Below are positions 17,266 to 47,916 of a stretch of DNA of 64,000 bases, piece by piece. The translations under genes and the position numbers were made by a program. Source of the stretch: Candidatus Collierbacteria bacterium GW2011_GWB2_45_17. GTDB lineage: Bacteria > Patescibacteriota > Microgenomatia > UBA1400 > MFAQ01. The stretch is from the NCBI GenBank assembly GCA_001001485.1, contig LCKO01000001.1, forward strand, positions 9,381 to 73,380. Direction: 5' to 3'. Positions within the stretch are counted from its first letter, which is position 1; every line of letters begins with the position of its first letter. The notes beneath the pieces were generated by a model, which was not told where the DNA came from, searched no databases, and saw only the letters and a list, made by a program, of their open reading frames with translations.

Positions 17266-17537
17266 AATATTACAAACTCACCAAAGAAGAAAAACAAATT
17301 GAAAAAGATCTTATAGCTGGTAAATATGTTCCAGTACCTAACATGGAACAAGAAATTGATCGCTTCCAAAAAATAGCCCAAGCTCAACTCAAAAATAAAA
17401 CTGTTAATTTCCGTATTGCAGGGTCAGAGCTAGAAATCTTTAAATCCAAATCTGGCAAAGTTGGCCTTCCTTATCAGTCTCTACTATCTCTCCTTATTTC
17501 TCAATACAATCGAGATAAATTTTCCATCAAGCTTTAA
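17262..17537 (+). CDS. BrnA antitoxin
   Basis: VNFRIAGSELEIFKSKSGKVGLPYQSLLSLLISQY; 4-nt overlap with BrnT. Confidence 0.65.
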   Translation: MKYYKLTKEEKQIEKDLIAGKYVPVPNMEQEIDRFQKIAQAQLKNKTVNFRIAGSELEIFKSKSGKVGLPYQSLLSLLISQYNRDKFSIKL

Positions 17538-20252: not shown

Positions 20253-20287
20253 GTCATCCCGACCAAAGTGGAGGGATCTCACTCCAC
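20253..20287. repeat. Hairpin repeat GTCATCCCGACCAAAGTGGAGGGATCTCACTCCAC, followed by a bidirectional terminator-like hairpin CCGGCAACCTTTCGGCCACCGG
   Basis: Same ...GGGATCTCACTCCAC family as the copies at 41852, 46334 and 46988. Confidence 0.5.
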
Positions 20288-23800: not shown

Positions 23801-24313
23801 AATCACATGGTTGAGGACAAGACTCATGCGCGCTCCATTGGACCTTACTCTCTAGTCACCCAACAACCTCTTGGAGGCAAAGCTCAAATGGGTGGTCAGC
23901 GTTTAGGAGAAATGGAAGTTTGGGCTCTTGAAGCGCACAAAGCCGCTTACTCCCTGCAAGAAATGCTTACTCTCAAGTCCGATGATGTTGTTGGCCGTTC
24001 CAAAGCTTTTGAAGCTATTGTCAAAGGTGAAACTATCCCGATGTCTTCAATTCCCGAGTCCTTTAAGGTCTTGGTTAAGGAGCTAAACTCTCTTTGTCTC
24101 GCCGTTATTCCTACCGGTCAAGTAGTGGCTCATGTCGAAGAGCCCTTGCCTGTCAAGCCAGAGATTGCCGCCGAGATAGCCGAAGCCACCAGTATGTCCG
24201 ACGAGCTTAAAGTTTCCACCTTCGAGGAAGAAACCGATGAGTCCGGTGAAGACATCGTCGATCCAATAGATGAGGAAGCAGTATTAAACAAAACAACTAA
24301 CAATAATGAATAA
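20870..24313 (+). CDS. rpoB: DNA-directed RNA polymerase beta subunit
   Basis: Unambiguous RpoB similarity along its length; start placed at MIKQTKREDWGNI inside the ORF-track ORF 20819-24313. Confidence 0.9.
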   Translation: MIKQTKREDWGNIASKLPESNLAQTQLDSYKQFLEDGIRESLLELNPIRDFTGKVFEFEFLSNRVGLPKFSPKQAIEKGVTFEAPLWATVKLTNLHTAATQQQEIFLGDIPMMTSIGTFIINGVERVVVNQLVRSPGAYFTREVDPHSGRVIHQAEVRPMRGSWLEFIVSRNDHISVRIDRHRKVSATTLIRALGFSTNEEILALFTDVDTDKEHRYISTTLLKDSSTNTEEALLEFYQKVRPGEPAVLDNAKALLHQMFFDARRYNLGLVGRYKMNRKLGLNTPIDKQHITLTTEDFIGSVKYLIGLQNGTGKTDDIDHLANRRLRCVGELVNQTSFKAGLLRLERSIKEKMSLAKPDELPTPAAFVNPRPIISAITEFFRRNRLSSILDQVNPLSEIDNLRRISVMGPGGITRERASFSMRDIHSSQYSRICPVRSPEGPNIGLVTYLALYARINAYGFLEAPYLPVSKIVKGGKTTFKIGNEAVYLAADDEEDAYITHAGIERDGDSITQKWVPVRYAGKFIEADIDKVQYIDVIPRQVVGTSASLIPFIQQDEGTRALMGTHHLTQALPLVKPTAPIVGTGMEAITAAGMGWVVSSDFNGVVLSVDGNHISVKISEKDAVSAASGISPYDYGFIEIKKDIVTYHLRKYHNSSQDTCYNQHPLVSLGDKLKKGDVIINGPASENGELALGQNLLIAYAAFEGLGYEDAIVVSDRCVRQDLLSSVHIHEHTCDVMDTKLGAEELTRDIPNVAETDLRNLGEDGTIAIGSTVGPNDILVGKIAPKGETELTAEERLLRAIFGEKAREVRDTSLRMPHGEQGTIVSVRILSREAGDELDAGVIQQIKIKVAQLRKITVGDKVAGRHGNKGVISKIVSDADMPHLADGRPVDVIISPLSVLARMNLGQLLEAQLAFAGEKLGKRYSVPVFENVSEAKLNKTLIEAGLPINGKAQLYDGRTGEPFGQETAVGISYILKLNHMVEDKTHARSIGPYSLVTQQPLGGKAQMGGQRLGEMEVWALEAHKAAYSLQEMLTLKSDDVVGRSKAFEAIVKGETIPMSSIPESFKVLVKELNSLCLAVIPTGQVVAHVEEPLPVKPEIAAEIAEATSMSDELKVSTFEEETDESGEDIVDPIDEEAVLNKTTNNNE

Positions 24314-27300
24314 CATCATCGATTTTTCCGGATTACAGATTAGACTGGCGAGCCCCGAAGATATTAAGAGTTGGTCATATGGTTTGGTCACCAAACCGGA
24401 AACAATTAACTACCGAACTCAAAAACCGGAAAAGGACGGCCTTTTCTGTGAACGAATTTTTGGTCCTACTAAAGACTGGGAATGTTATTGTGGTAAGTAC
24501 AAACGAGTTCGTTTCAAAGGTATTGTCTGCGACAAATGCGGTGTTGAAGTTACTCTGAGCCGTGTCCGCCGCGAGCGTATGGGTCACCTTGAGCTGTCTG
24601 CTCCGGTCGCTCACGTTTGGTTTTTCAAAGGCGCTCCCAGCAAACTTTCTTTACTGCTTGATATTTCTCCCAAGGCCCTCACCTCCGTCATCTACTTCAG
24701 TAAATACCTCATCATGTCGGTCGATGAAGCCGGCCGAGAAGAGGCTCTGGCCAACATTGAAACTCAAAAAGAAACCAAGTTAAACGAGGTCCGCACCAAC
24801 TTTGATAAACAGATTGAAGACGTCAAAGATCTGGGAGAAAAGGAAATTAAAGAACTCAAGAAAAAAATAAGAGCTAAAGACGAACTGGAGCTAAAGTCCG
24901 AAGATCTAAAGGTCGATTACAAGCAGAAGGTAGCCAACCTCAGGGAGCAGATGGTCGTTGAACTGGCTTTCACCGAAGAAATCTACAGTAAATTAGGCTC
25001 GTTAATTGAAAGAATTCAAGCCAATTCTCTGGTATCCGATTCGGAGTTTGCCAAGCTAGAGGAATACCGTCTCGTCGATTGGATTGAAGCCGGTATGGGC
25101 TCGGAAGCCCTTCTTGAGGCTTTAAAGAAAATAAATCTCGAAGAACTGGGCTCCAAGTTAAAAGAGGATCTCAATAGCTCTTCGGAAGCCAAAAGACTTC
25201 GGGCCACCAAAAGACTTCAGGTGGTTCGTGGACTTTCCGACGCCAAAATTAAGCCGGAATGGATGATCGTTCAAACTCTTCCGGTTATCCCTCCGGACCT
25301 TCGTCCTATGGTCCAGCTTTCCGGTGGTCGCTTTGCCGCTTCAGACTTAAATGATTTATATCGCCGAGTTATCAATCGCAACAATCGTCTTAAACATCTG
25401 ATCGATCTTGGGGCTCCGGAAATCATTTTGAGAAATGAAAAACGTATGCTTCAGGAAGCCGTCGATTCTTTAATTGATTCTTCCCAAGCCCGTTCTACTC
25501 GCAGGTCACGCACCGGAAAAACCTTAAAGTCTCTTTCCGACATGCTTCGTGGTAAGCAAGGCCGTTTCCGTCAAAACCTTCTCGGTAAGCGCGTCGACTA
25601 TTCAGGTCGTAGTGTTATCGTCGTCGGACCGGAGCTAAAACTTAACCAATGTGGTTTGCCCAAGGACATGGCTCTGGAAATGTTTAAACCCTTTGTACTT
25701 CACGAGATCATCAAACAAGACTTGGCTCCGAATGTCAAAGCCGCCAAAGCTCTCATCGAAAAACGTCTACCGGAAGTTTTTGATATTCTCGAAAAAATTA
25801 CCAAAAAACACCCCGTGCTTCTTAACCGCGCTCCTACATTGCACAAGCTTTCGATTCAAGCTTTTTGGCCGGTACTGGTCGATGGCGCCGCTATTCGTCT
25901 TCATCCTGTCGTCTGTTCCGGTTTTAACGCCGACTTCGACGGAGACCAGATGGCTGTACACGTCCCCCTAACCAAAAAAGCCATTCAAGAAGCCAAGAAT
26001 CACATGCTTCCTCAATACAACCTGGTCAAGCCTTCTGCCGGTAACCCGGTTTCTATTCCTGACTCCAAGGAAATGGCCATCGGTGTTTACTATCTCACAT
26101 CCATAGATACCAAATTGGCCCCATACAGCATGCCGTTTTCCTCTCCCACCGAAGCCATCACTGCCACTCAGACAGGTGTGGTCAACGTCCGTCAGCTAAT
26201 ATTGGTGAGACTTCATCCGGAAGAAAGCAGTGAGCTTACCGAAACTACTGTTGGCCGTATTATTTTCAATAAAATTCTCCCCAAAGAGTGGAAATTCCTA
26301 AATCACAATCTACCTCGTAAAGAAATTTCCGCCATGTTCCATCGTGCGATTCGCGAGCTAGACATCAAGCGAGTTGTCAGATTAATTGATAATGTCAAAG
26401 ATATTGGTTTCCACTACTCAACCGTTTCCGGTCTTTCCTTTGCCATCACCGACAATGAAATGTACTCTGACAAAGCGGCCTTTATCGAAGGTGGAAACGT
26501 CAAGGCTAAAGAGATCGAAGAAAACTTTAACTCCGGTTTGATCACCAATGAAGAAAGACGAAAGCTTACTATTCAAATGTGGATGGATACTGCCGACGAT
26601 CTGGCCGAAAAAACCTGGCAGGAATTTTCTGAAGATAATCCGGTTCGCTTAATTATCGATACCGGCATGGGACGTATTACCAAAAATACCATCAAACAAC
26701 TCTCCGCTATGCGTGGTATCAACGTCGATCCTCTCGGCAATATGGTTGAGCTACCCACCAAGGGAAACTTCCGTGAAGGTCTTTCTATCTTTGAATACGT
26801 TACCTCCATTCGTGGTTCCCGAAAGGGTCTTACCGACACCGCTCTTCGTACTGCCGATGCCGGTTACTTGACTCGTCGCCTGGTCGATGTCAGCCATGAT
26901 GCTATTATTCGAGCAGAAGAATGCGGCACCGAAGAGTTTCTCACCATCTCTACCGATGGTACTCGTGGAAAAGTCTTCGAAAAGAGCATTACTTCCAGGT
27001 TTTCGGCCAAAAAAGTTGTTGCTCCCGAAACACGCAAAGTTCTTGTTTCTGCAGGTGAAATGATCACCGAAGATGTCGCCGCCGCTATCGTCAAGTCGGG
27101 TATCAAAGAGGTCGAAATCCGCTCTCCGCTCACTTGTAAGATGCGCTTCGGTCTTTGTGCCAAGTGTTACGGTAATAATTTAGCTAACAATGCTCCAGCG
27201 GTCATTGGAGATCCGGTTGGTGTCACTGCCGCCCAATCCATCGGTGAGCCTGGAACCCAGCTTACTATGCGTACCAAACACTCCGGAGGTGTCGCCGGTG

Positions 27301-28016
27301 TCGACGTTACCCAGGGTCTGCCTAGAGTTACCGAACTTTTTGAAGTCCGTATGCCCAAACTGGTTGCTCCTCTAGCCGAAGTCTCGGGCAAGGCCAAAAT
27401 TGTCGAAACCGACAACGGCAACCTAATTACTATTACCCCTACCGGCAAAAAAGAAGATCGCAAAGAGTATCTCATTCCTTTAGCCATGCATCTTAAGGTC
27501 GAAGATGGTGATCTTGTAGCCGTTGGAACTCAACTGGCCTCAGGAGGGGTGGACATTAGAGAACTTTTGAAGATCAAGGGTTTGAGAGCCGCTCAAAACT
27601 ACCTTATTGCCGAGATTCAATCAATTTATGAATCTCAAGGTATCAGCATTCACGACAAACACTTTGAAGTCATCACTAGAAAAATGTGCGACTATGTTCG
27701 AATTGACTCCGTTGGAGACTCAAGCCTCGTCGCCGGAGACGTTATCAGTCGAGGCAGTTACGAAATGGCCAATGAAGGCGTTATCGCTCAAGGAGGAGAG
27801 CCTGCCACCGCCACCAATCTTATTCTTGGTACCATTCGCGCCGCTCTACACACCGACAGTTGGCTTTCAGCCGCCTCTTTCCAAGACACCACCAGTGTCT
27901 TAACCGACGCCGCGGTTCAGGGAAAAGTTGACCATCTCGTGGGTATGAAGGAAAACGTTATTATTGGCCGCTTGGTTCCCACCAGCAAACTCCGTGCCAG
28001 GATCGAGAATATCTGA
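24306..28016 (+). CDS. rpoC: DNA-directed RNA polymerase beta' subunit
   Basis: NADFDGDQM catalytic motif, zinc-binding Cys clusters, 1236 aa. Confidence 0.9.
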
Positions 28017-28035
28017 TAAAATACACGAGCAAACA

Positions 28036-28458
28036 ATGCCTACCACGAATCAATTAATCAAGTCCGGCCGGGTGAGTAACGCCCGAAAAATAAAAACCAC
28101 CGCTCTTCGTAAGAGTTTTAACTCGGTCAAGCGTCGAATGGTTGTCACCCAAAGTCCTCAAAAGGCTGGGGTCTGTTTACAGGTCAAGACCATGACTCCC
28201 AAAAAACCAAACTCCGCATTACGGAAGATTGCCCGAGTGAGACTGTCAAACAAACAAGAAGTGACCGCTTACATCATGGGTGAAGGTCACAACTTAGCCG
28301 AGCACAGTATCGTCCTGATTCGCGGTGGTCGAGTTCGAGATCTTCCTGGTGTGAAGTTTCATATTATTAGAGGTAAGCTCGATACCGGTGGCATTGAAAA
28401 ACGCCGCACCTCCCGCAGTAAATACGGCACCAAACGCCCCTCAGTAGCAAAGAAATAA
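28036..28458 (+). CDS. rpsL: 30S ribosomal protein S12
   Basis: [12 protein letters not shown]...[10 protein letters not shown]. Confidence 0.9.
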
Positions 28459-28460
28459 AT

Positions 28461-28937
28461 ATGCGATCCAAAAAAACCCCACCTAAAAAAGTCCAATTTG
28501 ATCCGATTTACGGTAGTCCCTTAGTGGCCAAGTTAATCGCCTGTGTTATGGAAGACGGTCGAAAATCTGTCGCCGCCAAACAAGTTTACAAGGCTATTGA
28601 CATTGTCGCCGAGCAAACCAAGCAAGATGGAGTCGAGTATCTTCACACATCTCTGGACAACATCAAGCCGACTATCGAAGTCCGCTCCCGTCGTGTTGGA
28701 GGCGCTTCCTATCAAGTACCTACTCCTATCCGTCCGGAACGTCGTGACTCTCTGGCCATCCGCTGGCTCATCAATGCCGCCAAAGCTAGAGGCGCCAATC
28801 CTTACCGTACCCTTGCCGACAAACTCGCCGCCGAAATCGTGGAATCTCACGAAAATGCCGGCGCCGCCATCAAAAAGAAGCTCGACACTCACAAGCAAGC
28901 TGAGGCGAATAAGGCATTCGCTCACTTTAGATGGTAA
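28461..28937 (+). CDS. rpsG: 30S ribosomal protein S7
   Basis: S7 signature; 158 aa. Confidence 0.9.
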   Translation: MRSKKTPPKKVQFDPIYGSPLVAKLIACVMEDGRKSVAAKQVYKAIDIVAEQTKQDGVEYLHTSLDNIKPTIEVRSRRVGGASYQVPTPIRPERRDSLAIRWLINAAKARGANPYRTLADKLAAEIVESHENAGAAIKKKLDTHKQAEANKAFAHFRW

Positions 28938-29022
28938 TCCTATAGCATTATTACAGGACTACAATTTTTCATATTTGTGTTTCGGTATTGATTAGTTTTA
29001 ACTTTGGGTTTATTATGGATAT

Positions 29023-29871
29023 GTGATCACAAATTACTGCCCGATTTGTGGAGAATTGGTATTTAAAAAGCGAAAATTTTGTTCGGTTAAATGTAAGTCT
29101 GAAAGTCAAAATCAAAAGATTGAGTTAGAATGCACTGGTTGCGGTAACCATTTCAGGATATTGCCATATTTACAAAGGAAATCTAATTACTGCTCCGTCT
29201 CTTGCTATCACGACTCCACTAGGAAAAAAGAAATTAAAAATTGTCCGGTTTGCAGGAAGAATTTTTCAGTTATGGCGTGTTTAGTAAAGAAAGGTTTTGG
29301 AATTTATTGTTCTCAGAAATGTCGTTATAAAATTCACAGGAAGACTCAAGTTTGTTATCGATGCGGAAAGGAGTTTACTAGGGCATTATCATTATCTATT
29401 AAATATACAAAGTCATTTTGCAGTAAAAAGTGTTGCGACGACTCAACAAGGGAATATGTTTCGATATCGTGCCGCAATTGTCAGAAAATGATCTCAATTC
29501 CAAGAAGCACAATTAATCGAGGTAAGGGAGGATTCTGCTCCTGGTACTGTTATATCCACTATAAAGGCGAAACATCAATCGAAAAGATTGTGAGAATCCG
29601 ACTAAAAAAGGCCAAAATACCATTTGAACAAGAAGTTAAAATCGGTAAATACCATTCAGATTTTATGATCCAAAACACCAACATTCTGATTGAATGTGAT
29701 GGTGATTACTGGCACGGATTACCTTCAGCAATTGCCAAAGATAAGGTTCGAGATTTGATATTACGGACAAAAGGGTATGAAGTGCTTCGATTTACCGAGA
29801 CCGAGATAAAAAAGACAAAAGGAAACTGTGTTATTAATCAATTATCACAAAGGACAGACGTTAAGCAATGA
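29023..29871 (+). CDS. Zinc-ribbon-repeat protein with a C-terminal DUF559 (Vsr-like / restriction-endonuclease-fold) nuclease domain
   Basis: Five repeats of CxxC...x10-15...(F/Y)CSxxC, then IVRIRLKKAKIPFEQEV...SDFMIQNTNILIECDGDYWHG...DKVRDLILRTKGYEVLRFTETEI (DUF559 pattern). Confidence 0.55.
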   Translation: MITNYCPICGELVFKKRKFCSVKCKSESQNQKIELECTGCGNHFRILPYLQRKSNYCSVSCYHDSTRKKEIKNCPVCRKNFSVMACLVKKGFGIYCSQKCRYKIHRKTQVCYRCGKEFTRALSLSIKYTKSFCSKKCCDDSTREYVSISCRNCQKMISIPRSTINRGKGGFCSWYCYIHYKGETSIEKIVRIRLKKAKIPFEQEVKIGKYHSDFMIQNTNILIECDGDYWHGLPSAIAKDKVRDLILRTKGYEVLRFTETEIKKTKGNCVINQLSQRTDVKQ

Positions 29872-30811
29872 ATTCCCTCTCCAAAAAATACTGGGTCAAA
29901 CAAAAGCGGTATTCACTTTCCCGTTTAAATGGTTTCACCATTTTCTTTTGTTTCTGAGTCAGTTTTTCAAAATCTTTTTCGGTCAAGTGGGCCAGTATCA
30001 GGACATCACTTCGTCTCAGTTCTATACCCGTCTCTTTCTTTATTTGCTCTAGTATCTCTATCTGTACCGGCGCGTATTTTTGATAAACATAATCGGCGGT
30101 GAAAGTACTAAATACTTTATCGGCGATAATTAAGGACAAAATATTCTTAAACCACTTGGTGCCATAAAGAGTCTTTACCGGCTCCCGGGTGAAGGTAAAT
30201 CCAACTCGATAGTAAAACAATCCAAAAGGTTTGCTCATCGAGGTTAATACCGCCACGATATTTGGATGGGTATAGTCGAATTTATGTCTCTTGGTCAAAC
30301 CTAAATATGCCAAATCCACAATTACTTTATGTCCCAGATCCGCAATTTGATTAATTAAAGTGTCCACCAAAATATTTCCATCTCTACCGGATGGATTTGA
30401 GATAAACCAATACCCCGGTTTCAATTTCATTATCGTTTCGAAATCCTCCGGTATTTCTTGTACTTTTAGGCCAAGGCCTACGGCGCATTCCCGATAACCC
30501 TCATACTCTCCCTCCAGAGTATAAATTGGTGACTCCGGATGGTCTTTTTTGATTCTCGAAAGCAGGTGATATATTCCCTCACTCGAGCCACCGGTGGGGT
30601 AGCGGTATTCAAAGCTTTCCAAACCCTGAACGTCTTTTTTATAGAAATTAATCATCTTCTCAATGATTGGTTTCTCGTAGTCATCGAGTCCCGGCTTAAT
30701 CGATTTCAAAAATTCTCCATGTGGGAACTCTGCTGTAATCTCCGAAATCAGTTTCCTAATTTCCGGAAAGTAGTAAGAATAAACGGCTCGAATCGCTTTT
30801 AATTTCTTCAT
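29861..30811 (-). CDS. Class I/II PLP-dependent aminotransferase-fold enzyme (HisC/CobD-like, short)
   Basis: ISNPSGRDGNILV (NPxNPTG-like) and SMSKPFGLFYYRVGF (PLP-lysine motif). The probable start is the internal Met giving a 4-nt ATGA overlap with the upstream radical SAM gene; the ORF track extends to 30838. Confidence 0.55.
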   Translation of the reverse strand: MKKLKAIRAVYSYYFPEIRKLISEITAEFPHGEFLKSIKPGLDDYEKPIIEKMINFYKKDVQGLESFEYRYPTGGSSEGIYHLLSRIKKDHPESPIYTLEGEYEGYRECAVGLGLKVQEIPEDFETIMKLKPGYWFISNPSGRDGNILVDTLINQIADLGHKVIVDLAYLGLTKRHKFDYTHPNIVAVLTSMSKPFGLFYYRVGFTFTREPVKTLYGTKWFKNILSLIIADKVFSTFTADYVYQKYAPVQIEILEQIKKETGIELRRSDVLILAHLTEKDFEKLTQKQKKMVKPFKRESEYRFCLTQYFLEREFIA

Positions 30812-31683
30812 AGAATAATTGCCCCTTTGTATTGCCAATCAAATCGAATGTGTCCGTCGGGGAAGAAGATCATCTGTCGAATGTCATCCGTTCCGGGTTT
30901 TATCGTTAGAGCATCTGTCAAACAAACATTTTGTCCGGCGACATCATAGATTCTTGAGTTGTGTTCGTAAGAAAGAAGTAATCTCCCTTCCTTTTCCAGC
31001 CAGTCATTTATGTCCGCAATTTTCTTAGGAGTTAGCATCATCTTCACCGTATCTGTTTTATATTTCTCACTTTCCGAATTTTCCGGCGCAGCCACCGGTC
31101 TCAGAGACACTTGCTCCACTCCCCACTTGTTAGCCATCTCCACCATTTTTTTGGCCTCTTTGGGAGTGTCGATATGATCTTTGATCAGGACTACCGAAAA
31201 TCTTACGGAGTAGCCAATTTTATGCAGTTTGGCGATTATCTTTCCCAAATCCGGATATATTTTTTTACCGGGCACATAATTGGCTCTATTTTTCTCCGGA
31301 TCATAGTGCACCACCGATATCGAGATAATGGACAATCCAAGTTCAAACCACTCTTTTAAATATTTCTCATAACTTTTTTCTTGTTCGGAAAACAAAATAG
31401 CATTTGTCTGTAGTTCCAGAATAGGGAAGTCATATTTCTGAAGGTGTTTCAAATATTCGGTCAGCTGATCGGGGTATAAAGTCGGCTCACCCTTGCCGGT
31501 AAGCAGTACTGTCGTAATGTTATTTATCTGGGCAATCCTACAAGCTTTGTGAAAGTTGTGCCAGTTTATCAAGGTGGGTTTGGTGCCAATTCCCCTTATT
31601 CCCGTCATTTTCGAAACACAAAAGGGACAACTGGCATTACAAATGGCATTCCCCGACACTACCGTAAAAGTCTGTATCTTCAT
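30808..31683 (-). CDS. Radical SAM enzyme
   Basis: CNASCPFC (CxxxCxxC) near the N-terminus, TVLLTGKGEPTLYP glycine-rich SAM motif; 291 aa, no SPASM extension. Confidence 0.65.
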   Translation of the reverse strand: MKIQTFTVVSGNAICNASCPFCVSKMTGIRGIGTKPTLINWHNFHKACRIAQINNITTVLLTGKGEPTLYPDQLTEYLKHLQKYDFPILELQTNAILFSEQEKSYEKYLKEWFELGLSIISISVVHYDPEKNRANYVPGKKIYPDLGKIIAKLHKIGYSVRFSVVLIKDHIDTPKEAKKMVEMANKWGVEQVSLRPVAAPENSESEKYKTDTVKMMLTPKKIADINDWLEKEGRLLLSYEHNSRIYDVAGQNVCLTDALTIKPGTDDIRQMIFFPDGHIRFDWQYKGAIIL

Positions 31684-31801
31684 CTTAGTGTATATATTAC
31701 ACTAATAAAGAAGAATTGTCAAATATATCCAATTTAGCCACTATATACCTAGTGGAGTATAATCACCTTAGTACATTTCCAAACTCTTACGGAGGTAAAT
31801 C

Positions 31802-32233
31802 ATGTTTGAATGGTTATTTGGTTATAAAATTGATCCTCAAACCACGGTTGAGTGTTGGTTCCTTGAGTCCTATTCCATTACAGAAGAAAGTGCCAAGGGA
31901 AATCGTACTTTGGCCTACACCACCACTTGGAAAGAATACCAGTACAAGAGCCTTATCCATCCGAAGAACAAATTCGGTCCGAAAGATACCTTAGTGGTCA
32001 TAGGTCTTAACGTCAATCTAACCTCAGATTATAATTTTTTCACAAAGGAAGATTTCGAAAACCGAGCCAAGAATGTGCCAATCAGGAACGAAGAGGAGAG
32101 AGCTGCCTGGATCGATCGCATGCTTGAAACTCTTCCTTCAAAAAAAGAAAGTTTGGACAAATTAATTACGAAAATTGAGTCTTTGCGGGAAGGACTTTCC
32201 ACACTCGTCGATGAGCTACATTCACTTTCCTAG
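31802..32233 (+). CDS. Hypothetical protein with a canonical SD (GGAGG)
   Basis: 143 aa; SD 7 nt upstream of the ATG; its leader is duplicated upstream of the MttB gene. Confidence 0.4.
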   Translation: MFEWLFGYKIDPQTTVECWFLESYSITEESAKGNRTLAYTTTWKEYQYKSLIHPKNKFGPKDTLVVIGLNVNLTSDYNFFTKEDFENRAKNVPIRNEEERAAWIDRMLETLPSKKESLDKLITKIESLREGLSTLVDELHSLS

Positions 32234-32243
32234 AAGATAATTT

Positions 32244-32272
32244 AAAACCCCGATCAATTTTCGGGGTTTTTT
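32244..32272 (+). terminator. Intrinsic terminator AAAACCCCGATCAATTTTCGGGGTTTTTT
   Basis: GC stem then T-tract directly after the 32233 stop. Confidence 0.6.
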
Positions 32273-32338
32273 GTGCCTAATCATAAAGCGTATAATCACG
32301 CCAGTACATTTCCAATTTATTCTTCCAAAGGAGGCTCT

Positions 32339-33796
32339 ATGAAGCCAAAACTGACCTTGCTCGATGATGAATTGATTGCACGCGTCACTGACGAAGCTTT
32401 TCAATTATTGATGAGTCCGGGAATCAAAGTCCAAAATGTCGAAGCCCGTGAGCTACTTCGCTCCGCCGGAGCCGAAGTCGACGAGACCACTCTGGTTGCC
32501 CGGATTCCGAAATCTCTGGTCTTCACATCCCTCAAAACCGTGCCTCGTCATTTTCATCTTTATGATTATCAAGGCAACCAAAAAGTTCACTACGGCGGCG
32601 ACTCGGTTCACTTCGATCCAGGCTCCTCAGGCACCAATATTTTAGACACGGTGACTTTAGAGCATCGGCCAGCGCAAACTCAAGATCTTCTTCGGGTTAT
32701 CAAAGTGGTCGAAGGTCTTTCCGAGTACGACGCTCAGTCCACGGCTATTGTTTGTAGCGATGTGCCGAAAGAGATCCAAGATCTCTATCGCTTATATCTG
32801 GTTTTACTTTTCTCCGGGAAACCCATCGTCACCGGAGCCTTCTCCAATGAGAACGTCGAGCACATGATCGATATACTGGCCATCATTCCCGGTAGCCGCG
32901 AAAATCTGCGGCGTTTCCCCCGTGCCATATTCGATGTTTGCCCGTCGCCTCCACTCATTTGGTCCAATTTTGGCTCAGGCAATCTTATTGCTCTGGCGCG
33001 TGCCGGCGTTCCGGCCGAAATGGTTTCTATGCCCCTTGCTGGTGTGGCCGCCCCCGTGACCCTCATTGGCTCCGTCACTCAGCACGCGGCCGAGTGCCTC
33101 AGTGGGATCGTCATTCACCAATTAGCCGAAGCCGGCTCTCCCATTGTTTGGGGAGGTGCTCCGGCCATCTTCGACATGCGCAAAGGTGGCACTCCCATGG
33201 GTGCGATCGAGACCGCTATGATCGATAGCTCATATACCCAAGTCGGTAAATCCTTGGGACTTCCCACCCACGCCTATTTAGGCGGTTCCGATTCTAAGTT
33301 GGTCGACGGTCAAGCCGGCTTCGAAAGTGGCATGTCCATTCTTGTGGGCGCCCTCAGCGGTATCAATATGATCTCCGGTGCAGGTATGATCGACTCGCTT
33401 CTTTGTATGAGTCCGGAAAAACTGGTTATCGATGCCGAGTGCATTGCCATGGCTCGTCGAATGCTGAGGGGAATCGACACTCCGACCGAGACTCTAGCCT
33501 CAGGCTTTTATGAAGGTATAGACTTCAAAGGAAACTTTCTCAAGCAGAGAATTACCTCTGACCTATTCCGAAAGGAACAGCATCTCCCCAGCTCGGTAGT
33601 AGATCGGGATTCAGTTCGCGGCTGGAAAGCTTCAGGCAGTCTGGATACTTTTGCCCGAGCCAAGCTCGAGGTTGATAGACTTGTTGCCTCTTATCATCGT
33701 CCACAGCTAGACCCTTCTCAGGAAAAAGCCATTCGCGATCTTGTTGCCTCCTTCGCCCGCGAGGCCGGTATGCCCGCTCTCCCCCCTCTAGACTAA
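32339..33796 (+). CDS. MttB-superfamily (trimethylamine / glycine-betaine:corrinoid) methyltransferase, non-Pyl form
   Basis: Collinear similarity to MttB: AECLSGIVIHQL, GGAPAIFDMRKGGTPMG, LVIDAECIAMARRMLRGIDTPTETLA. The gene is visibly more GC-rich than its neighbours. SD AAAGGAGG upstream of the Met at 32339; the ORF-track ORF starts at 32273. Confidence 0.75.
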   Translation: MKPKLTLLDDELIARVTDEAFQLLMSPGIKVQNVEARELLRSAGAEVDETTLVARIPKSLVFTSLKTVPRHFHLYDYQGNQKVHYGGDSVHFDPGSSGTNILDTVTLEHRPAQTQDLLRVIKVVEGLSEYDAQSTAIVCSDVPKEIQDLYRLYLVLLFSGKPIVTGAFSNENVEHMIDILAIIPGSRENLRRFPRAIFDVCPSPPLIWSNFGSGNLIALARAGVPAEMVSMPLAGVAAPVTLIGSVTQHAAECLSGIVIHQLAEAGSPIVWGGAPAIFDMRKGGTPMGAIETAMIDSSYTQVGKSLGLPTHAYLGGSDSKLVDGQAGFESGMSILVGALSGINMISGAGMIDSLLCMSPEKLVIDAECIAMARRMLRGIDTPTETLASGFYEGIDFKGNFLKQRITSDLFRKEQHLPSSVVDRDSVRGWKASGSLDTFARAKLEVDRLVASYHRPQLDPSQEKAIRDLVASFAREAGMPALPPLD

Positions 33797-33839
33797 ATAC
33801 TTGCTAAACTACAAACAAATACCTTAAAAAAGGAGAAAA

Positions 33840-34328
33840 ATGTCTAAGTACTACGACATTGTAGTTATCAAAAGTTTCTCTATGGTTGCAGATGAATCGA
33901 CGGATGAAATTTTCAGAATGAACTTCGCTAAAGATGTCAGATCAAAACGCCTCGTTATAACTCATGCTCATCAATTAATAATTTTTAGCGTAGAGGCTAA
34001 AAGAATTGATCTCAATGCTGTCAAACGATTTGAAAATTTCCTCAGATCAAACGGTTTCACCAAGCTTTTTTCGGCAGTATACTCAGATAAAATGTCTGAT
34101 CTAGACGCCCGCTTCTTTACGATCAGATTGCATTCCAAGAATTTTTCCGATATGAAAGATCTGCTAATTTCCAAAATCGAAAAAGCCATCGGTGGAAAAC
34201 TCAAGGTTTACCACGACGAAATATACTATTTTCATTTGACCAAGTCCCAAATAAAGTCCAGACGTTTGGTTAGGCTAATAGACGATCTAGTCTTCTCTCC
34301 CGCAATCGAAATAGTCATCTGTATCTAA
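33840..34328 (+). CDS. Hypothetical protein (SD AGGAG upstream)
   Basis: 162 aa ORF with an SD. Confidence 0.4.
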   Translation: MSKYYDIVVIKSFSMVADESTDEIFRMNFAKDVRSKRLVITHAHQLIIFSVEAKRIDLNAVKRFENFLRSNGFTKLFSAVYSDKMSDLDARFFTIRLHSKNFSDMKDLLISKIEKAIGGKLKVYHDEIYYFHLTKSQIKSRRLVRLIDDLVFSPAIEIVICI

Positions 34329-34354
34329 CACTCCTCACAAGGGGGTGTTTTTTT
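34328..34354 (+). terminator. Intrinsic terminator ACACTCCTCACAAGGGGGTGTTTTTTT
   Basis: 7-bp stem with one G-U pair, plus T-tract. Confidence 0.45.
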
Positions 34355-34497
34355 GGCACAATAAAGTCTAGCTATTTGCCAGACTCCTTCTTGAAAAACT
34401 TCTTCACTCTCTGGTGGGCGCCTTTTGGGGCACGTTCGTAGGGGCGGGGTTTCCCCGTCCAACAACAACCCCAAAGAAAATTTGCTAACATAAATTC

Positions 34498-34827
34498 ATG
34501 TCCTCTGTCGATTTTTACCTCGACCATCGCAACAATAGTCCTGTCAGTGACTTTTTAGACAAAAACAAAGAGGTCAAAGTCAAAGCTTTAATTATCATCA
34601 AAAACATCATCGAGTTTGGCCTTTCCACCGCCATTCCCCACATCAAGAAACTCTCGGGTCTTCCTCTCTGGGAAATTCGTATCTTAGGCAAAAGCAACGC
34701 TCGCATTCTTTATGTCCACAAGGTTAAGAATCAAATAATTCTCCTCCACGCTTTCAAAAAGAAAACTAACAAAACTCCCACCAAAGAAACAAACATCGCT
34801 CTCAATCGCCTCAAAGATATCACTTGA
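34498..34827 (+). CDS. HigB-like toxin (Gp49-like/DUF891), second copy
   Basis: LWEIRILGKSNARILYVHKVKNQIILLHAFKKKTNKTPTKE. Confidence 0.65.
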   Translation: MSSVDFYLDHRNNSPVSDFLDKNKEVKVKALIIIKNIIEFGLSTAIPHIKKLSGLPLWEIRILGKSNARILYVHKVKNQIILLHAFKKKTNKTPTKETNIALNRLKDIT

Positions 34828-34860
34828 CATCTATATCCTATACGATATACAATTAGAACC

Positions 34861-35139
34861 ATGAACCTCCTCTCTTTTGACCAATATTTATCTGATAGCC
34901 TCAAAGATCCAGCATTCAAGAAACTCTGGGAAAAAGCCGACCCTGAATACCAGCTCTCCAGGCAAATAATCAAGGCCAGACTAGAGGCAAAAATGTCTCA
35001 AAAAGACCTCGCCAAAAAGGCTCACACCACTCAAGCCATCATTTCTCGTCTCGAAAACTCCAGCTTCAACCCCTCCCTCTCATTTCTCAAAAAAATCGCC
35101 ATTGCTCTCAACACCCCTCTCCATATCTCTCTTCCCTAA
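34861..35139 (+). CDS. HTH XRE-family antitoxin (HigA-like), second copy
   Basis: MSQKDLAKKAHTTQAIISRLE HTH; paralog of 5777-6067. Confidence 0.65.
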   Translation: MNLLSFDQYLSDSLKDPAFKKLWEKADPEYQLSRQIIKARLEAKMSQKDLAKKAHTTQAIISRLENSSFNPSLSFLKKIAIALNTPLHISLP

Positions 35140-35155
35140 CCTGTAAATCTCTCCC

Positions 35156-35180
35156 GCTCACCTCATTGGTGGGCTTTTTG
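35156..35180 (+). terminator. Terminator-like hairpin GCTCACCTCATTGGTGGGCTTTTT
   Basis: 7-bp stem plus T-tract between the antitoxin and fusA. Confidence 0.35.
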
Positions 35181-35196
35181 TGGTAAAATTAGCCTC

Positions 35197-37317
35197 GTGA
35201 ATATTGTCGGAAAAAAAGTTCCCCTTGATCGTGTTAGAAATACGGGTATTATCGCGCACATCGATGCCGGCAAGACCACCACTACCGAACGTATTCTTTT
35301 TTATACCGGTAAGTCATATAAAATTGGCGATATCGATGATGGTAATACCCAGATGGACTGGATGGACCAAGAAAAAGAGCGGGGTATAACGATCGTCTCC
35401 GCGGCCACCACCGCTTTTTGGACCCCTGTTTTGCCCCATGCCCGCTTCAAAGAAGAGCATCGCTTCAACATCATTGATACTCCGGGCCACGTCGATTTTA
35501 CGGCTGAGGTCGAGCGTTCTCTTCGTGTTCTCGATGGAGGCGTTATTGTTCTGGATGCCGGCTCCGGTGTCCAGTCTCAAACCGAAACCGTTTGGCGTCA
35601 AGCCGACAAATACCACGTTCCTCGCATTGCTTTTATCAACAAAATGGACGTTCTGGGAGCCGATTACATGGCTACCATCAAGGATGTGCATGAGAAACTC
35701 GGTGCCAAAACGGCCGTCATGGCTCTGCCTCTAGGTGTCGAAAACACTTTCCGCGGTATTGTTCTCCTTCTCGAGAGGGAAACTATTGTCTGGAAAGGCG
35801 ACGAAACCGGTGCTCTGTACGAAGTTACCGAAGGCTTCCCTGAGGAGATGAAAGACGAGTGTGAGCTCGAACGTGCCAAATTGATCGAATCCATTGTCGA
35901 ATTTGATGAAGTCCTCATGGGCGAGTATCTTGATGGTCAAGAACCGAGCCTGGACGCCCTCAAGACCGCTCTCCGGACAGCCACCTGTGCCAATCAGATC
36001 GTTCCTGTCTTTCCCGGTTCGTCCCTTCGCAACAAAGGCGTCCAGCCTCTTCTTGACGCCGTGGTTGATTTTTTACCTTCCCCACTAGACAAGCCCACCA
36101 TTACCGGTACCAATCCCGAAACCAACGAAGAGGAAACTCGTCTAGCCGACCCTGCCGAACCTTTCTCAGCCCTAGCTTTCAAGATTCAGGCCGATCCTCA
36201 TGTTGGTAAGCTGACTTATCTTAGAATATACTCCGGCAAAATTACCTCAGGTTCATTTGTTTATAATGCCTCCAAGCGCGAGCGCGAGAGACTTGGTCGT
36301 TTGATGCTCATGCACGCCAACACTCGTGAAGAAGTTAGCGAAGCCGGTGCCGGAGAAATTGTCGGCGTCGTCGGTCTCAAAGCCACCAAAACCGGCGACA
36401 CTCTTTGCGACGAATACAAGCCCTTGGTTCTGGAATCCATCAATTTTCCTGATCCGGTCATTTCTCTAGCCATTGAGCCCAAAACCAAAGCCGATCAAGA
36501 AAAGCTGGATGTGGCTCTGAGTCGTCTAGCCGAGGAAGATCCCACTTTCCGCATCAAAACCGATCACGAAACCGGCCAAACCGTTATCTCCGGCATGGGT
36601 GAACTTCATCTGGAAATATTGGTTGACCGTCTTCGCCGTGAGTTTAAGGTCGAGGCCTCTACCGGTGCTCCTCAAGTGGCTTACCGCGAAACTATCACCA
36701 AACCAGCTCGAGGAGAAGGTAAGTACATCCGCCAATCAGGTGGTCGAGGCCAATATGGTCACTGTATTCTCGTCATTACTCCCAAAACCAGAGGAGAGGG
36801 TTTTACTTTTACCAACAAGATCGTTGGCGGCACCATTCCCAAGGAATTTATCTCCCCAATCGAAAAAGGTGTTCGTGAAGCTCTCGACAACGGTGTTATT
36901 TCCGGTTTCCCTTTGGTTGATCTTGACGTCGCTGTTATAGACGGTTCCTTTCATGAGGTGGACTCTTCCGAAATGTCTTTCAAGATTGCCGGTTCCATGG
37001 CTCTTCAGGACGCCGTCAAAGCCGCCGGGCCGGTCATCCTCGAACCGATTATGAAGGTAGAAGTTACCACTCCCGAAGGTAACATGGGTGACATTATCGG
37101 GGACCTTTCCTCTCGCCGGGCCCAAATCGCCGGTTCCGCCCAACGGGGCAACGCTCGAGTTATCACCGCCACCGTGCCTCTTTCGGAGCTTTCCGCCTAC
37201 GCCACCGCCATTCGTTCTTTAACCGCCGGCCGAGCCAACTACTACATGGAACCCAGTCATTATCAGGAGCTTCCAAACAGTTTGGCGGCCAAGTTATTGA
37301 AAAACCCGACAAACTAG
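35197..37317 (+). CDS. fusA: Elongation factor G
   Basis: GTG start; [10 protein letters not shown]-domain motifs; 706 aa. Confidence 0.9.
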
Positions 37318-37384
37318 AGTAAAATCTGCTAAAATAAATAGGCTCGAAAAAAAGTAATTATAAAATATTAAACAATTAAACAAA

Positions 37385-38560
37385 ATGGCAACATATCAAA
37401 GAACCAAACCCCACGTTAATATTGGCACCATCGGTCACGTTGACCACGGCAAGACGACCCTTACTGCCGCCATTACCACTACTTTAGCCACCGCCGGCTT
37501 AGCCACAGCGCTTCCCTTTGATCAGATCGATAAATCTCCAGAGGAGAGAGAACGTGGAGTTACGATTCAGATTTCTCACGTCCCTTACGAAACCAAAAAA
37601 CGCCACTACGCCCACATCGATTGCCCGGGTCACCGAGACTACATCAAAAATATGATCACCGGTGCCGCTCAGATGGATGGTGCTATCTTGGTCGTCGCCG
37701 CTACCGATGGCCCTATGCCTCAAACCAACGAGCACTTGCTTTTGGCCAAACAAGTTAATGTTCCCAGATTAGTCGTCGCTCTCAACAAAATCGACGCTGT
37801 TTCCGATCCCGAACTCATCGAGCTGGTGGAGATGGAAATCCGCGAAAAACTAAAAAAATACGGTTTTGAAGAGGACACTCCCATTATCCGAGTTTCCGCT
37901 CTTAAAGCACTTGAAGGCGACAAAGATGCTCAAGCAGACATCATGAAACTCATGGACACGGTTGATGAATGGATCCCGGATCCGGTTCGTGAACTCGACA
38001 AACCCTTCCTCATGCCTGTTGAAGATGTTTTCTCAATCAAAGGTCGAGGTACTGTGGTTACCGGTCGTATCGAAACCGGTGTCGTTAAAGTTGGTGAAGA
38101 AATTGAAATCGTCGGTATCAAAGATACTCGTAAATCCGTTATTACCGGTGTGGAAATGTTCCACCAACAGCTTGAGCAAGGTCAAGCCGGTGACAACGTC
38201 GGTCTTTTGCTTCGCGGAATCGAAAAGGATGATGTCCAAAGAGGTCAAGTTCTATCCAAGCCTGGTTCGATCAAGCCTCACACCAAGTTCGAAGCCGAAG
38301 TTTATATCCTAGGCAAAGATGAAGGTGGCCGTCACACTCCTATGTTTACGGGCTACAAACCCCAGTTCTTCATCCGCACCACCGATGTTACCGGAGAAGT
38401 CAAACTGGCCGAAGGTGTCGAAATGATCATGCCTGGAGACTACGCCAAGATGTCTGTCGAGCTTATTCAACCCATCGCCATGACCGATGGCCAGCGCTTC
38501 GCCATTCGCGAAGGCGGTCTAACCGTCGGAGCCGGGGCTATTACCAAGGTGATTGCCTAA
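37385..38560 (+). CDS. tuf: Elongation factor Tu
   Basis: [19 protein letters not shown] motifs. Confidence 0.95.
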
Positions 38561-38594: not shown

Positions 38595-38906
38595 ATGACA
38601 GACCAACCACGCATTCGCGTCAAACTCAAGTCATTTGACCATCGGGTTATTGATGAAGCCGCCAAAAAGATTATTCAGGCCGCTTTAGTTTCCGGTGCCC
38701 AAGTGGTTGGACCTGTGCCTCTGCCCACCAAGAAGAAAGTTATCGTCGTTACTGCTTCTCCTCATACGGACAAAGATAGTCGCGAGCAGTTTGCCATCCT
38801 GACTCACAAGCGGTTAATCGATATTGTCAATCCAACCAATAAAACTATCGACTCACTTCAACATTTGGATCTCCCTGCCGGTGTCGGCATCGAAATTAAA
38901 ATGTAA
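38595..38906 (+). CDS. rpsJ: 30S ribosomal protein S10
   Basis: S10 signature. Confidence 0.9.
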
Positions 38907-41482: not shown

Positions 41483-41923
41483 ATGGCCACTAAAACAATT
41501 AAACAACTTGTCATCGCCAAAGCCAGTCACGCGCTTTCTTCTCCGCGTAAAACCAATCTGGTGCTTAAGGCCATTGTCGGTAGACCGGCACTTTTGGCAA
41601 TTAAACAATTGGCCGTCATTCCCAAGAGGGCCGGAGAACCTGTTGTTCAATTAATTAAACAGGCCATCGGTAATGCCGTTTCCAGATTTCAAGCCTCACC
41701 AGACAGTTTAATCATCGACTCCGCTTTCGCTACCAAAGGTCGTGTTCTAAAACGCGCTCACATCGGCGGTCGAGGTAAAACCAAGCCTTACGAACGCACC
41801 ACTTCACACTTGACTCTATATCTACGAGTTCTGACCCCCAAAGCCATCCCTGTCATCCCGAGCGCAGTCGAGGGATCTCACTCCACCAAGAAAGTCGTTA
41901 AATCTACCAAAAAAACAAAATAA
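41483..41923 (+). CDS. rplV: 50S ribosomal protein L22 with an extended C-terminus that contains an in-frame hairpin repeat
   Basis: L22 core; the tail ...PVIPSAVEGSHSTKKVVKSTKKTK is encoded by GTCATCCCGAGCGCAGTCGAGGGATCTCACTCCAC. Confidence 0.85.
   Translation: MATKTIKQLVIAKASHALSSPRKTNLVLKAIVGRPALLAIKQLAVIPKRAGEPVVQLIKQAIGNAVSRFQASPDSLIIDSAFATKGRVLKRAHIGGRGKTKPYERTTSHLTLYLRVLTPKAIPVIPSAVEGSHSTKKVVKSTKKTK
41852..41886. repeat. Hairpin repeat GTCATCCCGAGCGCAGTCGAGGGATCTCACTCCAC embedded in-frame in the rplV 3' end
   Basis: Same family as the copies at 20253, 46334 and 46988. Confidence 0.6.
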
Positions 41924-46333: not shown

Positions 46334-46368
46334 GTCATTCCGACCGAAGCGGAGGAATCTCACTCCAC
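46334..46368. repeat. Hairpin repeat GTCATTCCGACCGAAGCGGAGGAATCTCACTCCAC
   Basis: Same family as the 20253, 41852 and 46988 copies. Confidence 0.6.
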
Positions 46369-47483: not shown

Positions 47484-47566
47484 CGTCACCCCACTCTTGA
47501 CTTTAGACCTATAATTTGATATAGTTTCAGTATAGGTTCACACTAAAACTAACGTTGGAGGTAAAG

Positions 47567-47905: not shown

Positions 47906-47916
47906 ATATATGCAGA

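Follow-up and report, generated by a model that had tools for sequence, protein, structure and literature searches.

Variable regions between conserved core genes, for example capsule and O-antigen loci, are hotspots of horizontal gene flow. Accessory genes also occur inside the supercluster of transcription and translation genes: in Planobispora rosea the GE2270 cluster is located between rpoC and rpsL (PMC3943966), and a second case is of the same kind (PMC6735719). In both, the insertions lie between operons. In the stretch of 64,000 nucleotides from Candidatus Collierbacteria bacterium GW2011_GWB2_45_17 analysed here (the window; all coordinates refer to its whole length), accessory genes are likewise found inside this supercluster, but the break lies within the str operon (rpsL-rpsG-fusA-tuf) itself. 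A region of 6.26 kb with eight genes (28938-35196) separates rpsG, the gene of ribosomal protein S7, from fusA, the gene of elongation factor G (EF-G). These genes, taken from the listing of open reading frames (ORFs) and from family scans, encode a nuclease (g1), an enzyme dependent on pyridoxal phosphate (PLP; g2), a radical S-adenosylmethionine enzyme (rSAM; g3), a hypothetical protein (g4), a member of the MttB family (g5), a small hypothetical protein (g6) and a toxin-antitoxin (TA) pair resembling HigBA (g7 and g8).

The locus shares with core-flanked hotspots a fixed slot between highly conserved genes, cargo that is unrelated from lineage to lineage, recurring TA modules and the lack of a dedicated integrase. 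As in such hotspots, divergence climbs at the edges of the slot, which is consistent with exchange by homologous recombination. Unlike them, the slot lies inside what is normally a near-universal single operon and holds a conserved metabolic core besides the variable cassettes. We consider it likely, with a probability of about 0.7, that the 6.26 kb are what a long-lived, recombining slot contains at present, that its genes came in at different times, and that they are not one inserted island. One of the most conserved gene junctions of bacteria would then be a standing hotspot of gene gain and loss in a lineage of the candidate phyla radiation (CPR).

For a survey of this junction, loci were fetched via EF-G similarity, and 149 of them carry both rpsG and fusA. 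The median gap between the two genes is 83 bp. It exceeds 1 kb in only 7/149 loci, all of which are relatives of this organism or contigs labelled as or resembling Patescibacteria. Hence the open junction is beyond chance and unusual among bacteria at large. This had been claimed in a preliminary description of the locus, whose list of eight genes splitting rpsG from fusA is borne out by ORF and family scans and by other assemblies. Accessory DNA occupies a junction that is closed in most bacteria, and at least four modules (g1, g4, MttB and the TA pair) appear to have been gained after the lineage diverged.

The junction was open in every close relative found, at EF-G identities of 66-99% and with gaps of 2.3-6 kb. 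Between rpsG and fusA, locus L172 (EF-G 99%) carries the PLP-rSAM pair, MttB, a 145-aa ORF and a g6 homologue. L178 (92%) has three hairpins resembling repetitive extragenic palindromes (REP) and a small ORF, then PLP-rSAM, a membrane protein, MttB and a 592-aa ORF, and L175 (91%) has a 67-aa ORF, PLP-rSAM and a membrane protein. L176 and L177, in which the rSAM protein is the same as in L175, show the same content plus AbiEii/DUF6922 and CopG, on contigs without fusA. At L179 (88%), PLP-rSAM, a 140-aa ORF, a GNAT protein and a g6 homologue are present; this contig stops at the PLP gene, with rpsG outside. The rSAM-PLP operon is thereby located at the rpsG-fusA site in all five Collierbacteria lineages with visible context. 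MttB is found in three of the five, among the relatives only in L172 and L178, and g6 also in three, with homologues at the same position in L172 (58%) and L179 (44%). In none of L172 and L175-L179 did we find g1, g4 or the HigBA-like pair.

This differing spread of the genes divides the slot into three layers: the rSAM-PLP core, MttB with g6, and three species-specific cassettes. In the history that we propose, the rSAM-PLP operon would be the resident across Collierbacteria. A Chloroflexota-derived MttB, now without corrinoid partners, would have formed the second layer together with g6 next to fusA. The third layer would consist of self-contained cassettes (g1, g4 and the HigBA-like pair), each with its own promoter and/or terminator. 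For the insertion proposed in the preliminary description, the synteny of relatives gives a divided answer. The cargo does differ, with g1, g4 and the TA pair absent already from L172; the junction itself, however, is open down to an EF-G identity of 66%, and the core is there in every visible Collierbacteria lineage.

In the relatives with EF-G identities of 66-84% and both genes visible, 2.3-4.3 kb of lineage-specific genes lie in between. The cargo comprises a g1 homologue, a DEAD helicase and a ParE-like toxin in L188 (84%), a small ORF and a DEAH-like helicase in L093 (84%), membrane proteins and a ParE/Phd pair in L092 (76%), a glycosyltransferase-like protein, tgt and a vWA protein in L095 (68%), and three hypotheticals in L001 (66%). 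At L094 (72%), rpsG was not within 3.6 kb upstream of fusA. A Pfam census of 86 ORFs that lie in gaps of the str operon elsewhere, in genomes mainly of CPR or of relatives of this organism, revealed no recurrent system. The content was heterogeneous, and nothing recurred except Phd/YefM antitoxins (3) and pilin-like N_methyl proteins (3). In the literature we found no relevant paper on insertions into ribosomal operons of CPR. The series of states at EF-G identities of 99, 92, 91, 88, 84, 76, 68 and 66% lends itself to the study of integrase-free gene acquisition in streamlined episymbionts. It also means that contiguity of rpsG-fusA and of the ribosomal-protein block should not be assumed in the binning and scaffolding of CPR genomes. 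The features of the slot and its flanks are collected in the table.

Features of the open rpsG-fusA junction and its flanking genes (positions in the 64,000-nt window; SD, Shine-Dalgarno sequence)
Feature	Position	Strand	Remarks
rpoC (RNA polymerase beta')	24306-28016	+	
rpsL (S12)	28036-28458	+	
rpsG (S7)	28461-28937	+	PF00177; left anchor of the slot; ends the contiguous rpoB-rpoC-rpsL-rpsG block
g1 cassette	28942-29872	+	species-specific; boundaries from the L172 alignment
g1, DUF559/MTES_1575 nuclease with N-terminal Cys-rich array	29023-29871 (ORF)	+	GTG start; 282 aa
g2, fold-type I PLP enzyme, HisC/CobD-like	29861-30811	-	316 aa; Pfam Aminotran_1_2
g3, radical SAM enzyme	30808-31683	-	291 aa; Pfam Radical_SAM
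g4 cassette	31708-32290	+	species-specific; indel relative to L172
g4	31802-32233	+	143 aa; no family
g5, MttB	32339-33796	+	485 aa; PF06253, 286 bits
g6, hypothetical	33840-34328	+	162 aa; no family; own SD
g7, Gp49/HigB-like toxin	34498-34827	+	PF05973
g8, HTH_3 antitoxin	34861-35139	+	PF01381
fusA control region	35156-35199	+	hairpin 35156-35174 with T-run; extended -10 TGG-TAAAAT 35181-35189; GTG 35197
fusA (EF-G)	35197-37317	+	right anchor of the slot; opens the fusA-tuf-rpsJ... unit
tuf	37385-38560		follows fusA
rpsJ	38595-38906		after tuf

The GC content at third codon positions (GC3) of all eight slot genes lies within +/-1.4 standard deviations of the other 68 ORFs in the window, so that compositional foreignness is ruled out. 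The preliminary description had called MttB GC-rich; this holds at codon positions 1 and 2 only, from which the high overall GC derives, whereas its GC3 (0.526) is similar to that of fusA (0.518). Against L172, L175 and L178, the ratio of nonsynonymous to synonymous divergence (dN/dS) is 0.03-0.18 for the PLP gene, rSAM, MttB and g6 (0.05-0.10 for g2 against its relatives), which indicates purifying selection. Together with the host-like composition, this marks the four genes as functional and host-adapted.

Divergence from L172 is uneven along the locus. Identity amounts to 93-96% in rpoC, rpsL, fusA and tuf, 79-86% in PLP-rSAM, 92-97% in the centre and 83-84% at the edges of MttB, 62-75% in g6 and 89-90% in the first 400 nt of fusA. 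The synonymous divergence (dS) is 0.25-0.5 for the housekeeping genes and MttB, 0.84 for the PLP gene, 1.15 for rSAM and 1.74 for g6. Divergence climbs beside each indel, and we read this as import of diverged alleles along with new cassettes. Turnover would thus proceed by homologous recombination, with the conserved rpsG and fusA as anchors, between Collierbacteria alleles that have diverged; new cassettes would enter along with diverged DNA from their flanks, and the nuclease would add site-specific homing at the 3' end of rpsG. A mosaic is also seen between strains: in L084, L087 and L089 (28036-33796), g1 with its spacer and rSAM with g4 differ by 0-0.7% from the window, and rpsL, rpsG, the PLP gene and MttB by 1-3%. 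In L087 the 3' end of the PLP gene differs by 17%.

How essential genes tolerate such turnover is suggested by the control region of fusA. According to the preliminary description, fusA keeps its expression by read-through or from a local terminator/promoter region; such a region was found at 35156-35189, and its promoter is conserved in relatives. Those with EF-G identities of 84-99% share the upstream layout of an extended -10 box, a hairpin, an A-rich leader and ATGGCYGC. The columns T.TG.TA.AATTA are invariant in 6 lineages, and the 30 nt from 35175 to 35204 are 100% identical to L178. This conservation supports expression of fusA from its own extended -10 promoter. Compared with all relatives (L172, L175, L178, L188, L093), ~77 nt are deleted here, comprising the leader hairpin, the A-rich leader and the first five fusA codons. 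The deletion fuses the conserved -10 region in frame to codon 6 of fusA, and the sole in-frame start is the GTG at 35197, seven nt past the -10 box. Hence a leaderless fusA mRNA with a GUG start, and with it leaderless translation, is predicted.

In the relatives, the rpsG unit ends in REP-like hairpins or a terminator. Here there is no terminator-like site between rpsG and g1, so that g1 may be read through from rpsG. In the wider lineage, str would consist of two transcription units, rpoBC-rpsL-rpsG ending in hairpins and fusA-tuf-S10 with its own promoter. With two separate units, the intervening DNA can come and go without uncoupling essential genes. A small indel is present in the conserved block itself, where the rpsL-rpsG spacing is 2 nt (28458-28461) versus ~60 nt in L172.

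The g1 cassette stands in place of 52 bp of the L172 allele that contain a REP-like hairpin (CGTCATYCCGA..GGRATCTC), and its insertion has altered the PLP gene, which is convergent with g1, over its final ~5 codons. Across 21 aligned homologues, five CxxC...[FY]CSxxC units and the residues E187, D213, E224 and D226 are invariant, and the C-terminal nuclease core, of the Vsr/DUF559 type, has the motif IE(C/A)DG(D/E)YWH. The AlphaFold2 (AF2) model has a beads-on-a-string architecture (predicted local distance difference test, pLDDT, 90.4; predicted template modelling score, pTM, 0.48). Its best fold in the PDB is the catalytic domain of I-Bth0305I (3r3p, E 1.2e-4, TM 0.77 on the target), followed by the DUF559 structure 3hrl and Vsr. 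PHROG families named 'HNH endonuclease' match the zinc-finger region, and 306 viral-contig stretches encode g1 relatives, many of them full length. In cellular sequences the family is small (46 matches), and its two named cluster representatives are both Patescibacteria.

The distribution of g1 at this one site is patchy. It follows rpsG here and, as a 69% identical homologue ahead of unrelated cargo, in L188; at the same place it is absent from L172, L175, L178 and L093. Between L084 and the window, g1 with its upstream spacer differs in 0/934 nt, compared with 1.3% in rpsG and 2.7% in the PLP gene; between L089 and the window the values are 0.35% for g1 and 3.35% for rpsG, and the contig does not reach the PLP gene. 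In its fold, its intergenic position and its recurrence at the same site by a conserved gene in two lineages, g1 is similar to I-Bth0305I and other free-standing homing endonucleases. The same is true of its patchiness, its lower diversity than the flanks and its abundant phage relatives. It is itself free-standing, with no intron or intein to encode it, and differs from I-Bth0305I in that five N-terminal CxxC...FCSxxC fingers take the place of the DNA-binding region and the motif is ExDGxxWH, not EDxHD. Thus g1 fits a free-standing endonuclease of the homing type, and homing activity would be predicted from model and distribution. Copying into an empty allele with co-conversion of the flanks may have contributed to the raised divergence of the neighbouring PLP-rSAM block. 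With its apparently fixed insertion site, it is a candidate for a natural sequence-specific zinc-finger nuclease.

The REP-like hairpin (GTCATYCCGA..GAGGRATCTC) has 4 copies in the window versus 0 expected (20253-20280, 41852-41879, 46334-46361 and 46988-47015). It sits intergenically in ribosomal operons, and in L172 and L178 it directly follows rpsG, which is the place of g1. It could be the target of the nuclease. A further nuclease-like protein of 287 aa with CxxC...FCSxxC repeats is encoded at 62480-63343 (+), adjoining the tRNA-Pro gene (62350-62422, -). It matches PF18780, 'homing endonuclease associated repeat', and its gene has a GC3 of 0.34. As a close paralogue of g1 it was ruled out, since the similarity is at the level of motifs only.

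The g4 cassette has its own -10 box (TATAAT, 31758-31763), an SD (GGAGG) and, at 32244-32270, a bidirectional terminator hairpin. A 26-nt direct repeat (GTATAATCAC...AGTACATTTCCAA; 31757-31782 and 32290-32315) bounds the cassette and is a copy of the -10 box and leader of MttB. This sequence occurs at two places only in the window, with 0 chance matches expected, and L172 has a single copy of it and no g4. By the repeat, g4 and MttB share their -10 box and leader, and a different cassette in the slot of L178 carries a similar leader. The shared leader suggests cassette exchange by recombination at that sequence, or co-regulation.

MttB starts at ATG 32339, preceded by the SD GGAGG, as other gene callers agree, and not at GTG 32273. 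The protein scores 347.9 with TIGR02369, whose cutoff is 525; it is therefore a member of the superfamily only and not an equivalog of trimethylamine:corrinoid MttB. Its ORF contains no in-frame stop, and hence no in-frame UAG for pyrrolysine (Pyl). A sub-threshold Rfam match to PYLIS_3 (33284-33383, +; 29 bits, gathering threshold 38) within this non-Pyl MttB is probably coding homology to the pyrrolysine-insertion region of true mttB. The relatives in the PDB are MttB and the glycine betaine enzyme MtgB. Like the non-pyrrolysine members of the superfamily (MtgB, PDB 2qne/9yce), g5 has the full-length family fold and lacks an in-frame UAG. Its best matches are Collierbacteria proteins (80-98%), followed by hundreds of proteins of Anaerolineales/Chloroflexota at 69-72%. 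In one Anaerolineales genome the homologue is accompanied by a GntR regulator, a corrinoid protein, three MttB paralogues and a pterin methyltransferase. Family scans found no corrinoid protein and no pterin methyltransferase in the slot or in the rest of the 64-kb window; g5 is an orphan without the partners and the regulator of its 70%-identical Anaerolineales relatives. Judging from these similarities, MttB may have been acquired horizontally from Chloroflexota and has since adapted to host codon usage. Further downstream, g6 is a semi-conserved resident upstream of fusA, followed by a terminator-like hairpin (34327-34349). It has no match in Pfam, PHROG or the PDB, where the searches with g4 and g6 gave only noise.

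A purely vertical history, in which all eight genes are old and the relatives differ by losses only, is in our view unlikely. It would account for the conservation of the rSAM-PLP core at the site, for host-like composition and purifying selection, and for the L188 homologue of g1 (69%), which occupies the matching site and has diverged about as much as rpsG (77%). However, within the clade of EF-G >=88% it demands that g1, g4, the TA pair and MttB were lost independently on many occasions. Neither a MttB that is 70% identical to Anaerolineales proteins, nor the 26-nt duplication around g4, which is an insertion scar, nor the 3-5-fold heterogeneity of dS within the slot would be expected from it, and among strains g1 varies less than the DNA on either side. 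The preliminary description had set against an insertion the case that relatives hold the same genes with host-like composition. This applies in part, to the rSAM-PLP core, and not to the other modules.

Several points weigh against the recombining slot and its homing nuclease. The five rSAM-bearing lineages were found by an rSAM search, which shows a location at the junction when the operon is present, not its presence in all Collierbacteria. The strain-level mosaics come from metagenome consensus contigs and may be due to strain mixing. The higher dS of the PLP gene, rSAM and g6 could partly reflect a weaker codon constraint than in the highly expressed flanks, although MttB, which is also a non-translation gene, counts against this cause. 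As to g1, no near-identical copy was found in another species, the nearest outside the species being 69% identical, and its patchy distribution could result from repeated loss. In addition, its ancestral ATG has been lost: upstream of the GTG, a TAA precedes the in-frame sequence LWVYYGY (28999-29025), which is the N-terminus of the 69% homologue. The lost start may be an early decay of the nuclease gene.

The most novel element of the locus is an uncharacterised radical SAM family, represented by g3, that is tied to NAD salvage in CPR, DPANN archaea and large phages. In the g3-g2 operon, g3 is the first gene and g2 the second. The pair, described before as divergently oriented, is divergent from g4 but convergent with g1. 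In an alignment of 51 sequences, C15, C19 and C22 and the stretch G63-K-G-E-P67 of g3 are invariant; the cysteine motif reads CNASCPFC, and the score with PF04055 is 44.4 bits (cutoff 29.5). The same alignment contains only two further conserved cysteines, so that an auxiliary cluster is absent. No PDB sequence matches g3. Its AF2 model (pLDDT 92.8) is closest in fold to MoaA and viperin-like enzymes (TM 0.6-0.7) and to NifB. The protein stays far under every curated NCBIfam cutoff, among them the viperin model NF038283 (26.6 bits versus 180, with residues 14-123 only matched). It thus resembles MoaA, which acts on GTP, and viperin/pVip, which act on CTP, in the CxxxCxxC core and as top structural matches, and differs from both in scores far under their cutoffs, in the lack of an auxiliary cluster and in a context of NAD salvage, not of molybdopterin or defence.

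Its partner g2 has the signature of fold-type I PLP enzymes, with N139-P, D166, Y169, S191, S193, K194 and R202 invariant in 8 sequences and the conserved motifs NPS..R and SxSK194. It scores 29.5 bits with Aminotran_1_2 (cutoff 19.7), and its nearest PDB sequences are HisC. As it remains under the equivalog cutoffs of both HisC and CobD, it belongs to neither enzyme family itself.

Homologues of g3 at 80-92% identity come from Collierbacteria/Microgenomates where the source gives a name; those at 48-60% bear the names archaeon, Nanoarchaeota and Pacearchaeota. Outside Collierbacteria there are four independent cellular contexts, and in all 4 the rSAM gene lies in or beside NAD genes (PncB, PncA, NadE, NadC, NadB, NadA, NMNAT, PnuC, NadR-like and NrtR). 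The archaeal loci L180/181 have the order PncB-PncA-NadE-NUDIX-NMNAT-rSAM, then CinA, then NrtR, and L182 has NrtR-rSAM-PLP. L183/184 read PncB-PncA-156aa-rSAM-PLP-NadE-NadC-nucleoside hydrolase-NUDIX-NadB. In L185/186 (Nanoarchaeia) the order is PncB-PncA-...-156aa-rSAM-PLP-NadE-(deoxyribosyltransferase/NUDIX)-PnuC-NadR-like-...-NadA. The unannotated 156-aa ORF that stands before rSAM in two of these archaeal operons has no similarity to g4 or g6, which rules out that either is its counterpart.

Viral contigs of IMG/VR contain 43 full-length g3 homologues, many of them in contigs 60-460 kb long. At 32 non-redundant viral loci, the commonest families encoded by the four nearest ORFs are nicotinate phosphoribosyltransferase (NAPRTase; 6), isochorismatase (3), NMNAT-type cytidylyltransferase (3) and NAD synthase (2). 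On large viral contigs (L190-L235) the family adjoins NAPRTase, PncA, NMNAT and NadE genes. From this gene neighbourhood we conclude with moderate confidence that the g3 family works on the NAD pool. The rSAM enzyme would carry out a radical reaction whose substrate is a pyridine nucleotide or nucleoside, or else a related metabolite, and so feed or repair the NAD pool; the HisC/CobD-like PLP enzyme would act on its product. More tentatively, and somewhat short of an even chance, we propose the wider picture: an undescribed component of NAD salvage or reconstitution in CPR, DPANN and very large phages, with a HisC/CobD-like PLP partner in CPR and DPANN. In Collierbacteria it would be parked with an orphan MttB in a slot that is guarded, at the 3' end of rpsG, by a site-specific homing nuclease with zinc fingers. 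In phages it may help to restore the NAD pool or to shield it from immunity that depletes NAD. We found no relevant paper in the searchable literature that links a radical SAM enzyme with NrtR, NAD salvage, DPANN or phages.

It speaks against this proposal that the link to NAD is one of guilt by association. In Collierbacteria the rSAM-PLP pair has no NAD genes beside it, nor were any found elsewhere in the 64-kb window, and the PLP partner is missing in L180/181 and in all viral loci. Rfam at gathering thresholds found nothing in the whole window, neither an NAD riboswitch nor any other; at E<=1, the island gave the PYLIS_3 match inside MttB and a chance match to the rimP leader, nothing more. 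The family is a testable one, tightly tied to NAD salvage genes in DPANN archaea and on contigs of jumbo-phage size.

Could the pair instead sit by rpsL, rpsG and fusA because it modifies a component of translation? It is established that some radical SAM enzymes modify translation proteins, and analogous pathways are known: RimO acts on S12, EpmB, an rSAM/PLP enzyme, belongs to the pathway for elongation factor P (EF-P), and Dph2 acts on EF-2. Such a role would agree with the conserved location of the pair, between S7 and EF-G in five Collierbacteria lineages. We nonetheless regard it as very unlikely: in the loci examined outside Collierbacteria the family is never beside translation genes and instead lies in NAD operons, the pair here is read from the opposite strand and has a promoter region of its own, and it has no above-noise similarity to the models of RimO/MiaB, KamA/EpmB or Dph2.

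The TA pair (34498-35139) is species-specific, being absent from L172, L175 and L178. Its toxin gene comes first, with a spacer of 33 nt to the antitoxin gene, and the matches to PF05973 (1.9e-19) and PF01381 (5.2e-14) agree with HigBA. As in HigBA type II systems, a Gp49/HigB toxin stands upstream of an HTH_3 (Xre) antitoxin in a compact pair, and nothing distinctive sets it apart. A strong promoter-like site for g8 was found at 34824-34853. With the g6 terminator on one side and the fusA promoter on the other, the pair is flanked by similar boxes, TGG-CACAAT to the left and TGG-TAAAAT to the right. In the window there are at least four TA-like pairs including g7-g8. A second Gp49+HTH_3 pair (5484-6067) is paralogous, with a toxin 28% identical; other modules are a BrnT/CopG pair (16957-17537) and proteins with a Bro-N domain (6671-7498 and 60511-61329). 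TA-like pairs, the two Bro-N proteins, a KilA-N protein and a TIR-like protein are dispersed across the ribosomal supercluster. Both the nuclease and the TA pair of the slot belong to generic types of mobile or selfish module, and with similar ones elsewhere in the supercluster, the slot is one case of a genome-wide habit and not a dedicated defence locus.

The preliminary description had interpreted the nuclease, the TA pair and the biosynthetic enzymes as a single accessory or defence island, brought by one insertion into an intact rpsL-rpsG-fusA-tuf operon. The close adjacency of rpsG and fusA in most bacteria (median gap 83 bp), the presence of a nuclease and a TA pair and weak PADLOC domain matches would speak for it. 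PADLOC gave single-domain matches to HEase (1e-4), pVip (6e-8, in the rSAM core), LmuA (3e-3), NsnC (3e-7) and generic HTH, but no complete system among the island proteins. The conserved core looks metabolic and linked to NAD, and the viperin score stays far below its cutoff. Neither the eight island proteins nor the neighbouring ORFs contain an integrase or recombinase domain. At the island borders there are no att-type repeats, only chance matches of 14-26 nt apart from the internal 26-nt duplication, and no tRNA gene, the sole one of the window being at 62350-62422. The island DNA has no match in phage and plasmid collections (blastn in distant mode). The parts are unequal in phyletic depth and thus of different ages, they resemble the host in synonymous composition, and relatives with EF-G identities of 66-84% already had an open junction. 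L172 largely refutes the single island: at an EF-G identity of 99%, it has the core and lacks g1, g4 and the TA pair. We therefore judge one insertion of a single island to be most improbable. While the observation of the preliminary description is confirmed, its interpretation is partly supported.

That the arrangement is real and not an assembly artefact follows from its recurrence in other assemblies and strains. The 9.4 kb from 28001 to 37400 are 100% identical in three other assemblies (L081, L082, L090) and 98-98.5% identical in contigs of three further strains (L084, L087, L089), and rpsG is 100% identical in 10 contigs. A chimera of assembly or binning, with accessory genes misjoined between two ribosomal contigs, might be suspected in a metagenome-assembled genome of which an early assembly (L083) has collapsed gaps, but it is virtually excluded by the identical arrangement in assemblies of different projects and in strains of 98% identity and by the order rpsG-PLP-rSAM-...-fusA in related species, on contigs of up to 681 kb.

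The rpsG|fusA junction is not the only near-universal one in the window that is split. Between rplO and secY lie ~3.6 kb (47484-51124) with six ORFs, including an M28-peptidase-like protein and several hypotheticals of low GC3. Between secY and adk (52406-53296) there is the KilA-N protein (52461-53294). The junction of map and infA is broken too: past map and before rpsM (54589-56120), a TIR-like protein is encoded at 54631-55008 and a BrnT-like/CopG-antitoxin pair at 55106-55673.

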